Origin: Escherichia phage vB_EcoM-101112UKE3-1
Reading direction: 5' to 3' (one strand)
Length of the DNA: 64,000 bases
Sequence record: MZ234013.1
The position numbers were made by a program, and so were the translations under genes. The notes beneath the pieces were generated by a model, which made no database searches, was not told where the DNA came from, and was given only the letters and a program-made list of their open reading frames with translations. Below are positions 53,957 to 55,110 of the stretch, in pieces; the first letter of the stretch is position 1; each line of letters starts with the position of its first letter.

Positions 53957-54411
53957 TGGAATTTAAAGACTTTTCAACGGGTCTTTATGTAGCAGCTAAG
54001 TTTTCAGAATTAACACTTGACGCGCTGGAAGAACTCCAGCGCTCTTTACGTGTTCCTAATCCAGTTCCTAGAGAAAAAATTCATTCGACCATATGTTATT
54101 CGAGAGTAAACGTTCCATATGTTCCATCGAGTGGAAGTTTTGAAGTAGCTTCTTCTGGACATTTAGAAGTGTGGAAAACACAAGATGGATCGACTCTTGT
54201 ACTTGTGTTAGATTCTGAATATCTGCGCTGTCGACACATGTATGCGCGGGCACTAGGTGCTACACACGATTTTGATGATTACACACCGCATATAACATTG
54301 TCTTATAATGTTGGGCCCTTATCATTTAGCGGTGATGTACAAATTCCGGTTGTACTTGACCGTGAATACAAAGAGCCTCTTAAACTCGATTGGGCAGATG
54401 ATTTAAAATAA
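53953..54411 (+). CDS. 57B: gp57B-like hypothetical protein
   Basis: 152 aa as T4 57B; ATGA overlap with 57A. Confidence 0.6.
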
Positions 54412-54423
54412 TTTCACAAAGTT

Positions 54424-54453
54424 GTTTACATACTGATGAGGTAGTGATACTAT
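54424..54453 (+). promoter_or_regulatory. early-type promoter module (TTCACAAAgttGTTTAC -35, 18 bp spacer, TGaTACTAT) with palindrome GAGGTA...TACCTC
   Basis: Near-identical module repeated at 54755 and, in part, at 55053 and 58571. Confidence 0.5.
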
Positions 54454-54484
54454 TACCTCATCAAAATTAATTAGGAAAATAAAA

Positions 54485-54742
54485 ATGAAAACTTTCAAAG
54501 AGTTTGCTACAAAAACTACTATCACTGAATCTTCCCACGGTATGGAAGTAAAGCTTGGAATGGCTTTAGCTGAAGCTGAGCGTCTTTTCTCTCGTATTAA
54601 AGAACTTGCTGCTGCGGTCGATCCTTCATCTTTTAAAGGAGACCAAACTAAAGTTAAAGCACTTTTAGCATTATGCTCCGATGCAGGAGAAATTGCTAAA
54701 AATGGCTCTAAGATGAAGAAACGATTAGAAGATTTAAAATAA
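54485..54742 (+). CDS. small internal-protein-like protein with CTS-like N-terminus (MKTFKEF...ITE)
   Basis: 85 aa; N-terminus resembles the T4 internal protein capsid targeting sequence MKTYQEFIAE; own early promoter. Confidence 0.55.
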   Translation: MKTFKEFATKTTITESSHGMEVKLGMALAEAERLFSRIKELAAAVDPSSFKGDQTKVKALLALCSDAGEIAKNGSKMKKRLEDLK

Positions 54743-54754
54743 TTTCACAAAGTT

Positions 54755-54784
54755 GTTTACATAGGGTTTTAGTTGTGATACTAT
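54755..54784 (+). promoter_or_regulatory. early-type promoter module (second copy)
   Basis: aatttcacaaagttgtttacata identical to the copy at 54411; -10 TGtgATACTAT. Confidence 0.5.
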
Positions 54785-54818
54785 TACCCTATCAAAACAA
54801 AACCAAATGGAAATCAAA

Positions 54819-55052
54819 ATGAAAACTTACCAAGAATTTATTGCTGAAACTGCTGATGTAAAAGTTGAGTTTATTTACACTGGCAAGAAAGATAAAATGG
54901 GTGAAATGCCTCATGGAGTTCTTCGTGATGCATTAGATAATTTCGGTCAACTCGCCGCAGAAGATTACGGTGATAAAATTGTTGTTACTGGTCCTGCTGC
55001 AGTTATTGAAAAATGGGCAGCAGAAAATAAATCAATTTTTCGTAAAAAATAA
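54819..55052 (+). CDS. internal protein with canonical capsid targeting sequence MKTYQEFIAE
   Basis: Exact MKTYQEFIAE leader (gp21 cleavage motif I-A-E); 77 aa from this ATG (track ORF starts 12 nt upstream at 54807). Confidence 0.65.
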   Translation: MKTYQEFIAETADVKVEFIYTGKKDKMGEMPHGVLRDALDNFGQLAAEDYGDKIVVTGPAAVIEKWAAENKSIFRKK

Positions 55053-55082
55053 GTTTACTTTTAGATAGGGTAGTGATACTAT
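55053..55082 (+). promoter_or_regulatory. early-type promoter module with 9-bp perfect inverted repeat flanking the -10 (GATAGGGTAgtgatactatTACCCTATC)
   Basis: GTTTAC, 18 bp spacer, TACTAT; palindrome 55064-55091. Confidence 0.5.
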
Positions 55083-55110
55083 TACCCTATCTACTACTGA
55101 GGAGAATAAA

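Follow-up and report, generated by a model that had tools for sequence, protein, structure and literature searches.

The ip5 and ip6 internal-protein cassettes of a T2/T6-like Tequatrovirus and the promoter/hairpin modules that border them

Introduction

What do the short genes lying between gene 57B and the tRNA region of this Escherichia phage encode, and what are the palindromes that enclose part of the promoter in front of each of them? An earlier note on this DNA, made from the letters alone, had proposed a hypervariable T-even internal-protein (IP) locus with small injected proteins, and palindromes that might bind a regulator. Here we examine the locus in the 64-kb window (the whole stretch of DNA analysed, 64 000 nucleotides) and in related phages. 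We read it, with a probability of about 85%, as the IP locus 1, from 57B to trna.4, in a T2/T6-like Tequatrovirus, holding two known cassettes, ip5 and ip6, whose products would be packaged and injected by means of their leaders and which would be exchanged through the repeated modules. The locus is already known and both genes were named earlier; the window offers no unusual variant of it.

Genome context and boundaries of the locus

The window belongs to Tequatrovirus (phage vB_EcoM-fFiEco06 is 99.9% identical at the DNA level), and ip5 and ip6 are annotated at the matching place in Tequatrovirus genomes that are 99.9% identical to the window DNA. Some 770 Tequatrovirus records have a match to the locus. 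An IP locus was taken to run either from 57B to the tRNA region or from e to denV. Both genes lie in the first of these, flanked by gene 57B (Acb1) and trna.4 in synteny with the T4 ipI locus, and the second, the site of ipII and ipIII in T4, is empty in the window phage. The four genes of the region are:

53953..54411, plus strand: gene 57B (Acb1, anti-CBASS), the conserved left flank; Pfam PF23474 Acb1, E = 2.7e-60; syntenic with T4 57B
54485..54742, plus strand: ip5, 85 aa, beginning MKTFKEFATKTTITE (IPI-type leader); phrog_3499 'internal head protein', E = 1.2e-49
54819..55052, plus strand: ip6, 77 aa, beginning MKTYQEFIAE; phrog_8111 'internal virion protein', E = 1.2e-52
55111..55296, plus strand: trna.4, 61 aa, the conserved right flank; protein 100% identical to T4 trna.4; phrog_1692

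The gene sizes first proposed (85, 77–81 and 61 aa) correspond to open reading frames found here, and for the middle gene 77 aa is favoured, the alternative ATG at 54807 (giving 81 aa) having no Shine-Dalgarno sequence. The third gene, trna.4, encodes a small, hydrophobic membrane protein without a leader. We also observe that the Acb1 anti-CBASS gene stands directly upstream of the ip5/ip6 cassettes.

Ip5 and Ip6 are named proteins with capsid-targeting leaders

The 85-aa protein is identical in sequence to UniProt Q38630 (Q38630_BPT6), 'Ip5' of phage T6, with 92–99% identity to those of T2 and RB70 (RB70: Q38378_BPR70), while the 77-aa protein is named Ip6 in the source databases, where its 78–100% identical matches are called Ip6 or internal head protein (e.g. 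E5FII6 of phage VR7). The exact sequence of Ip5 is present on 205 contigs and that of Ip6 on 158. Neither window protein differs substantively from its database counterparts (for Ip5, those of T6, T2 and RB70), and some relatives of each have another leader variant before the same mature domain. Beyond these names, family databases add little: Pfam searches gave no significant match for either protein (for Ip5 one sub-threshold match, E = 0.076, under the curated cutoff), NCBIfam has no family for either, and a PDB sequence search with both returned no significant match. AlphaFold2 models Ip5 as a helical hairpin (pLDDT 71) and Ip6 as a ferredoxin-like fold (pLDDT 82).

Experiments have assigned leader residues 4 and 7 to targeting and residues 8 and 10 to processing, with the cut falling after L/I-X-E (PMC9026906). 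Both Ip5 and Ip6 begin with the pattern M-K-T/S-Y/F-x-E/Q-F, which includes targeting residues 4 and 7, and in both the leader closes with a gp21 site of the form (L/I)-x-E. In the middle gene the exact capsid-targeting sequence that the earlier note had pointed out is indeed there, residues 1–10 of Ip6 being the T4 IPII/IPIII leader. The first gene had been credited with a 'CTS-like' start, and its MKTFKEF...ITE is more than that, namely a leader of the T4 IPI type. Cleavage by gp21 is predicted after E15 of Ip5 (I-T-E, residues 13–15), leaving a 70-aa mature part with a pI of ~9.2, and after E10 of Ip6 (I-A-E, residues 8–10), leaving 67 aa with a pI of ~6.5; mature Ip6 is thus near neutral, whereas the T4 IPs are basic. 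Two leaders, MKTFKEFATKTTITE and MKTYQTFMTE, are found in front of the same mature Ip5 domain (first residues SSHGMEV), whose boundary can therefore be placed right after the Glu. Only three open reading frames in all six frames of the window start with the leader motif: ip5, ip6 and a 157-aa frame at 57929. At the DNA level the leader-coding parts of ip5 and ip6 form a direct repeat, D2, of two copies that are 77% identical:

54477..54520, plus strand: leader-coding repeat copy 1 (Shine-Dalgarno, ATG, ip5 leader codons)
54811..54854, plus strand: leader-coding repeat copy 2 (Shine-Dalgarno, ATG, ip6 leader codons)

Among the closest known counterparts of Ip5 is T4 IPI, whose mature form IPI* is an injected inhibitor of the type IV enzyme GmrSD. 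The two proteins have the same locus, upstream module and type of leader, and are alike in size (mature 76 aa in IPI versus 70 aa in Ip5) and similar in pI. Their mature domains, however, are unrelated and belong to separate families, and Ip5 is predicted to be all-helical, whereas IPI* has been described as beta sheets flanked by helices (PMC3012670). Similarly, T4 IPII and IPIII have the exact 10-residue capsid-targeting sequence in common with Ip6, and their promoters also carry the -10 within a palindrome, as in the window modules, but they are encoded between e and denV, unlike ip5 and ip6, and their mature domains are unrelated. We considered Ip5 and Ip6 as orthologues of T4 IPI, IPII or IPIII and rejected this, the similarity being confined to the leader and Ip5, Ip6 and IPI falling in separate BLAST families. 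Near-identity to the T4 proteins, which the earlier note had named as the outcome that would make this locus well described, is therefore not what we find; yet Ip5 and Ip6 are already named proteins in their own right.

Promoter/hairpin modules

Each of the three short genes is preceded by a module in which GTTTAC is followed, after 18 nt, by TACTAT with TG upstream, a T4-type early promoter whose -10 sits in the loop of a hairpin. The modules lie within copies of a 71-nt repeat that are 100%, 86% and 63% identical to module 1 (modules 1, 2 and 3 respectively), and the final codons of 57B (DLK-stop) fall within repeat copy 1:

54396..54466, plus strand: module 1, 71-nt repeat; -35 GTTTAC at 54424-54429; extended -10 TGaTACTAT with TACTAT at 54448-54453; arms 54434-54443 / 54454-54463
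54727..54797, plus strand: module 2; -35 at 54755-54760; -10 at 54779-54784; weak, shifted arms 54761-54767 / 54786-54792
55025..55095, plus strand: module 3; -35 at 55053-55058; -10 at 55077-55082; arms 55062-55072 / 55083-55093

The sequence GTTTAC-N15-TGATACTAT occurs three times, at 54424, 54755 and 55053, where none is expected by chance, and the looser pattern GTTTAC-N14-18-TGATACTAT has exactly these three matches in the 64 kb (54424-54453, 54755-54784 and 55053-55082) and none in 100 shuffles. Exact copies of the 14-mer GTGATACTATTACC are likewise found in the 64-kb window only at the three module sites. The idea that one and the same module precedes all three genes thus holds for GTTTAC-N15-TGATACTAT and fails for TTCACAAAGTTGTTTAC, which is exact in modules 1 and 2 only, module 3 being common only from GTTTAC onward. 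All three have TTTACA/T-N17-TACTAT and then a Shine-Dalgarno sequence and a start codon, and the record of phage fPS-65 has three 'predicted early promoter' annotations exactly at modules 1–3. From TTTCACAAAG to the start codon, module 1 is identical to the module before T4 ipI; the 5' part of module 2 matches that of the T4 trna.4 module at 96.6% identity, and module 3 is colinear with this T4 module from the -10 onward.

That the -10 lies inside an inverted repeat was confirmed for all three modules. Module 1 has the arms TGATGAGGTA/TACCTCATCA (10 bp, loop of 10 nt) and module 3 the arms TAGATAGGGTA/TACCCTATCTA (11 bp, loop of 10 nt), while module 2 has just a weak, shifted ATAGGGT/ACCCTAT (7 bp, loop of 18 nt). 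Folded as single-stranded DNA and compared with shuffles, modules 1, 2 and 3 gave z = -4.3, -2.9 and -4.0. This arrangement is uncommon among the early-promoter-like matches of the window (n = 37): the -10 is spanned by a stem of 7 bp or longer in four, three of which are modules 1–3, and the fourth lies within a coding region (57186, minus strand).

A set of 44 distinct modules shows what is conserved. In 16 of them (1.09 expected) a perfect stem of 7 bp or more encloses the -10, among which 11 arm sequences occur, and the dyad axis is fixed, with 47% of positions paired as against 22–31% for shifted axes. The arms differ wholly among modules (TGATGAGGTA, GATAGGGTA, GGTAGGACTA, AGGTCTATAG, AGGGCTAT, GTGTAGGGATA), each being complementary to its own partner, and the only conserved part of the palindromes is the loop, i.e. 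the -10 itself. Selection on the hairpin acts on structure, not on sequence, and its role may lie in recombination or in RNA or DNA metabolism. Only about one third of the modules have a good hairpin, so that a module can persist without one.

Cassette variability and its relation to known modules

Across 38 related loci we found zero to three leader-bearing open reading frames per locus, 17 mature-domain families and 22 arrangements. Together with T4 synteny and the database names, this comparison bears out the description of a hypervariable T-even IP locus. Homology to T4 covers window positions 53953-54519, 54737-54795 and 55073 onward, that to ipI stopping at 54519, within the leader. One IMG/VR phage has ip6 only, with the junction in module 1/2, and the junctions relative to T4 and to the IMG/VR loci L035 and L034 are located in modules or leaders. 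Chimeric modules with mismatched arms were also found, the two arms deriving from different module types, which places crossovers in the -10 core.

Modules and leader repeats together provide some 70–110 bp of homology on either side of each mature-domain segment, so that in mixed infections recombination may delete, insert or swap cassettes. The variation at the locus matches the cassette shuffling of Repoila et al. (1994) and of the papers on PeSLs. Repoila et al. (1994) had reported promoter and stem-loop blocks from IP loci, as relayed in later work (PMC2839356, PMC4122927), and PeSLs have the promoter consensus TTTACW-N17-TAYWAT (PMC4122927); excision of PeSL cassettes as mini-circles has been assayed by inverse PCR in infected cells (PMC2839356). 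The Repoila blocks, as so relayed, and the PeSLs (Arbiol 2010; Comeau 2014) place an early promoter, a stem-loop and a Shine-Dalgarno sequence between small variable open reading frames, as here; the window modules fit the PeSL consensus, and in both systems insertion/deletion or replacement junctions coincide with the elements. The difference is in the stem-loop. In the PeSLs of RB49/phi1 and PST it precedes the promoter and is either rich in G+C or terminator-like, whereas the window stems (10, 7 and 11 bp) enclose the -10, are AT-rich and have no T-run. Arbiol et al. regarded the IP-associated elements as analogues, not homologues, of PeSLs.

What the hairpin is for

Dyad symmetry, overlap with the -10 and an axis fixed relative to the promoter are features typical of repressor sites, and the palindromes might be operators at which a dimeric phage or host regulator switches the early promoters off or on, much as the earlier note had suggested. 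We consider this very unlikely: with 11 arm sequences and only the loop conserved there is no conserved half-site, which disfavours a sequence-specific regulator. An RNA structure would accommodate variable arms with kept pairing, and read-through RNA from upstream would include both arms; since PeSLs have been described as composite promoter–terminator motifs (PMC4122927), the hairpins could be terminators, or stabilisers of the RNA 3' end, for the gene upstream. A terminator role we rejected, as a consensus scan of 53700-56100 gave no terminator-like site and none of the three hairpins is followed by a T-run. Moreover, G.T mismatches in the arm columns are no commoner than A.C mismatches, so that a helix in the sense-strand RNA is not favoured over a DNA structure. 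The composite terminator–promoter is, overall, unlikely, though less so than the operator; the hairpins may act as stabilisers once the RNA has been processed. Kept symmetry with variable arms, the fixed dyad axis and the chimeric modules are also compatible with structure-specific recombination, in which the palindromes around the -10 would be recognised by their hairpin or cruciform shape, independently of sequence, with crossovers aimed at the loop (the -10 core). Integron attC sites offer a resemblance, and only that: there too, gene cassettes lie between imperfect palindromes that vary in sequence but preserve their symmetry, but the window locus, unlike the integron system, has no integrase. 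Ordinary homologous recombination over 70–110 bp can account for the junctions, and we hold such recombination sites to be improbable, somewhat less so than operators. If they were real, T-even IP loci would be an integron-like cassette array for exchanging injected anti-defence genes.

Expression, packaging and possible functions

From what is established for T4, ip5 and ip6 would be expressed early from the promoter of each module, and late, for packaging, by read-through from upstream late promoters. Neither gene has a late-promoter consensus immediately in front of it. The closest candidate from which late transcripts could read through 57A, 57B, ip5 and ip6 is this motif:

53363..53370, plus strand: TATAAATA, a match to the late-promoter consensus within gene 1; the motif stands at an equal offset in gene 1 of T4

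The leader would then take the precursors into the scaffolding core of the prohead, where gp21 would cut at the predicted sites, and the mature 70-aa and 67-aa proteins would remain in the head and enter the host with the DNA, where they may neutralise a host defence. By analogy, what they act on is most likely one particular restriction enzyme of the modification-dependent kind (type IV, GmrSD-like), since a distinct GmrSD enzyme is blocked by each of Ip1, Ip2 and Ip3 (PMC12373910). The position of the anti-CBASS gene Acb1 next to the cassettes is in line with an anti-defence role. The specific guess of GmrSD is nonetheless weak because in the same 2025 study ip4–10 gave no reproducible inhibition against a panel of GmrSD variants (PMC12373910, Suppl. 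Fig. 9). The paper on the related phages fPS-65 and fPS-90 contains no virion proteome, and a literature search for Ip5 and Ip6 by name retrieved either nothing or mostly papers on inositol phosphates.

An accessory role in the head core or on the DNA was once proposed for the T4 IPs. Ip5 and Ip6 might accordingly serve assembly, DNA packing or ejection rather than anti-defence, and the basic mature Ip5 (pI 9.2), the panel that gave no target for ip4–10, and the slower head assembly and smaller bursts of T4 IPIII mutants (PMC9026906) all point that way. Yet Ip6 is not basic, anti-restriction targets are now known for each of the three T4 IPs, and related loci hold zero to three cassettes from 17 unrelated families, some phages having none; host-specific accessory functions fit such variation and absence better than a structural need, and we find the head-core role doubtful. 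Hardly credible, in our view, is that the leader is a relic and that Ip5 and Ip6 act only as early cytoplasmic proteins that are never packaged. The adjoining promoter is indeed of early type only, with no late consensus nearby, but an identical promoter module stands in front of T4 ipI, whose product is packaged and injected (PMC3012670), and the leader has been kept over 17 unrelated mature-domain families while all that follows it differs.

Packaging and injection directed by the leader therefore remain our reading, and under it the locus is a textbook case of T4-like phages trading small injected proteins against the restriction systems of their hosts. Naming the two proteins correctly keeps Ip5 and Ip6 from being taken for new effectors.

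Identity of the locus and its proteins

The genes considered here occupy a known position in T4-like phages. The region shares 99.9% identity with Tequatrovirus genomes, among them vB_EcoM-fFiEco06 and Yersinia phage fPS-65, and 235 phage records contain a single match spanning 80% or more of the 57B-to-trna.4 query (1,351 nt); the arrangement carried by the window is a common one. Gene order in the matching records is 57A/57B, ip5, ip6, trna.4, trna.3, trna.2 and the tRNA cluster, with ipI occupying the same position in T4. Three small genes follow 57B, the first two being named ip5 and ip6 in these records:

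54485-54742, + strand, ip5, 85 aa
54819-55052, + strand, ip6, 77 aa
55111-55296, + strand, trna.4, 61 aa

The 85-aa protein is identical to UniProt Q38630 (Ip5 of phage T6, present also in T2 and RB70) and matches phrog_3499, 'internal head protein' (E = 1.2e-49), while the 77-aa protein, Ip6 in the databases, matches phrog_8111, 'internal virion protein' (E = 1.2e-52). The two families are very narrow, numbering 5 and 11 clusters among 5.8 billion proteins, and their named matches all come from T4-like phages. The trna.4 product is identical to that of T4; it is hydrophobic and lacks a leader. Published work has already described the proteins, their leader, the hypervariability of the locus and the promoter/stem-loop modules; the earlier note described the locus rightly and interpreted it largely correctly.

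Capsid-targeting leaders

Read directly from the T4 sequence, IPII and IPIII start MKTYQEFIAE, and IPI starts MKTFKEFTSTTTPVSTITE, each followed by A. Ip6 thus has the exact IPII/IPIII leader, as had been claimed, and the capsid-targeting type proposed for the first gene was found in Ip5 as a shorter version of the IPI leader (MKTFKEFATKTTITE, then S). Experiments of the Black laboratory (reviewed in PMC9026906) showed that the first 10 residues of IPIII are enough for packaging, that leader residues 4 and 7 matter in targeting and 8 and 10 in processing, and that the prohead protease gp21 cleaves after L/I-X-E; judged by sequence, both leaders fit these rules. In one IMG/VR relative the Ip5 mature domain (SSHGMEV...) stands behind another leader, MKTYQTFMTE, which places the domain boundary directly after the Glu. 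Likeness to T4 stops at the leaders, beyond which sequence comparison and family clustering found Ip5 and Ip6 unrelated to IPI, IPII and IPIII.

Promoter modules

A repeat of ~71 nt occurs in three copies within 54396-55110 (identity 100%, 86% and 63%), each comprising GTTTAC, 18 nt and TACTAT, with TG two bases 5' of TACTAT. In a scan of the 64 kb, GTTTAC-N14-18-TGATACTAT matched only at 54424, 54755 and 55053 (0 in 100 shuffles), and the three early promoters predicted in fPS-65 are annotated at exactly the positions of these modules, which precede products of 85, 77 and 61 aa. Each of the three small genes does therefore stand behind a promoter/palindrome module, with stems of 10, 7 and 11 bp:

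Module 1, upstream of ip5: 10-bp inverted repeat, TGATGAGGTA/TACCTCATCA, -10 in loop
Module 2, upstream of ip6: weaker, shifted 7-bp pair, -10 in loop
Module 3, upstream of trna.4: 11-bp inverted repeat, TAGATAGGGTA/TACCCTATCTA, -10 in loop

The module was not uniform throughout, however, its upstream block TTCACAAAGTTGTTTAC being exact in copies 1 and 2 but not in copy 3. Folded as single strands, modules 1, 2 and 3 lie well below shuffled controls (z = -4.3, -2.9 and -4.0), and a stem of at least 7 bp over the -10 occurs in four of the 37 early-promoter-like matches in the window, namely the three modules and one inside a coding region. Of the two lengths suggested for the middle gene, 77 aa is favoured: its start at 54819 has a Shine-Dalgarno sequence, but the ATG at 54807 (81 aa) has none. 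A second repeat, common to ip5 and ip6, takes in the Shine-Dalgarno sequence together with the start codon and the codons of the leader. At its 5' edge, the ~71-nt repeat reaches into the last codons of the upstream gene, and both 57B and Ip5 end in DLK-stop.

Cassette shuffling

We compared 36 IMG/VR loci, retrieved via the 57B protein, with T4 and the window. Each locus has 0 to 3 leader-bearing ORFs between 57B and trna.4 (two loci are cassette-free); altogether these 58 ORFs represent 17 mature-domain families, in 22 arrangements across the 38 loci, in keeping with the hypervariable T-even internal-protein locus proposed earlier. From 57B the window is homologous to T4 through module 1 and into the leader, where homology stops at 54519; it returns over 54737-54795, the 5' portion of module 2, and once more from the module 3 -10 (55073) onward. 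The one module before trna.4 in T4 thus looks like a recombinant of modules 2 and 3 from which ip6 was removed. In one relative (L035) ip6 is the sole cassette and the junction falls in modules 1/2; in another (L034) the same flanks enclose a 102-aa cassette. These junctions fit the modular shuffling model for the promoter/stem-loop element (PeSL) of T4-like phages (PMC4122927), and the module promoter fits the PST/T4 PeSL consensus, TTTACW-N17-TAYWAT. Later papers (PMC2839356, PMC4122927) ascribe the cassette pattern to Repoila et al. (1994).

Distant relatives of Ip6 (68-78 aa) occur in other T4-like phages at seven of the IMG/VR loci (L005, L010, L014, L016, L021, L026, L029) and share the motif F/V-x-GP-x-x-x-I-[DE]-x-W-x-x-x-N. 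They often begin at an ATGA overlapping the 57B stop, and there have no promoter module of their own.

Symmetry around the -10 element

Pooling the loci gave 44 distinct modules, of which 16 carry a perfect stem of 7 bp or more across the -10, against 1.09 expected from shuffles keeping both hexamers, and these stems use 11 different arm sequences. Where the spacer is 18 nt, the dyad axis keeps a fixed place relative to the promoter: 47% of positions pair there, compared with 22-31% for shifted axes, and column shuffles attained the observed count in 3/1000. Because the fixed axis pairs above controls while the arms vary, it is the symmetry that is selected and not the arm sequence, which argues against the sequence-specific regulator sites that the palindromes had been suggested to be. 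No T-runs follow the three hairpins, and a consensus scan of 53700-56100 found no terminator-like sites. In the arms, G.T mismatches are no commoner than A.C, which leaves a sense-strand RNA helix no better supported than a DNA structure. Several modules are chimeric, their 5' and 3' arms belonging to different types (in L019 and L028, 840-1220 nt past the start of 57B, and module 2 of the window; for example AGGGCTAT...TACCTCATCA), which places past crossovers within the conserved -10 core. The hairpin may serve as a recombination hot spot, protect RNA 3' ends or modulate the promoter.

Expression

Transcripts initiated at a module's own promoter would begin within the 3' arm and thus lack the hairpin, which only read-through RNA would carry. 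No TATAAATA late-promoter consensus adjoining ip5 or ip6 was found by consensus scan; the nearest upstream is at 53363, inside gene 1, an offset kept in T4. Since the terminator scan found no sites in between (from 53700 on), late read-through would be the plausible route to the late synthesis that packaging needs.

Other internal-protein loci and neighbouring genes

At T4's second IP locus, ipIII and ipII lie between lysozyme gene e and denV. Here e (62103-62597) adjoins denV (62657-63073), so that this locus is empty, and the promoter remaining at 62602 carries the 5' part of the T4 ipIII module, with a TGTGA/TCACA palindrome remnant; both cassettes look to have been lost through recombination between modules.

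A further ORF lies outside both recognised IP loci:

57929-58402, + strand, 157-aa ORF (within 57853-58441), starting MKSYTQFLNE-AVLNE

This start conforms to the leader of internal proteins and to the gp21 motif L-x-E, and a TATAAATA late-promoter consensus lies at 57885-57892, 37 nt 5' of the ATG. Two copies of a 34-nt terminator hairpin, TTAGCCCCGACC(G/A)AAAGGTTGGGGCTTTTT, flank the ORF, where T4 has an empty site (left flank, single hairpin, right flank). It is a 'hypothetical protein' in all examined records and named cluster members (389 phage records with one match covering at least 80% of the query; a cluster of 216 members), and the ORF may mark a third locus with an internal-protein cassette that has gone unrecognised. 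Within the tRNA cluster, a 257-aa ORF (56685-57458) resembles the GIY-YIG homing endonuclease gene segB of T4, with which it has the motif YKITNKINNKIYIGVHSTENLDDGYMGSGKLLKRA in common; as the T4 product is 221 aa long, the true start probably lies downstream of the listed GTG.

Possible functions of Ip5 and Ip6

The mature proteins are of ~7.5 kDa, with pI 9.2 (Ip5) and 6.5 (Ip6). Structure prediction gave no functional lead for either: the Ip5 model, a two-helix hairpin (pLDDT 71), had no significant match, and the viral relatives of Ip6 were only Ip6 itself and two distant T4-like IP families with the common motif GP..I..W. In T4, IPI* acts as an inhibitor of the E. coli CT596 GmrSD enzyme (PMC3012670), and a 2025 study showed that Ip2 and Ip3 block distinct GmrSD enzymes and do not cross-protect (PMC12373910). 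The authors of the latter study proposed GmrSD variants as the targets of every protein of the two Ip loci; ip4-10 gave no reproducible interaction with further variants (their Suppl. Fig. 9), and this one negative screen counts against a specific GmrSD target for Ip5 or Ip6, which would be a guess. By analogy with the characterized internal proteins, it is nevertheless reasonable to infer an anti-defence role for both. Directly upstream of ip5, 57B (53953-54411), still labelled 'RNA ligase' or 'hypothetical' in several phage records, is the anti-CBASS phosphodiesterase Acb1 (Pfam E = 2.7e-60), and thus a known anti-defence gene lies directly beside the IP cassettes.
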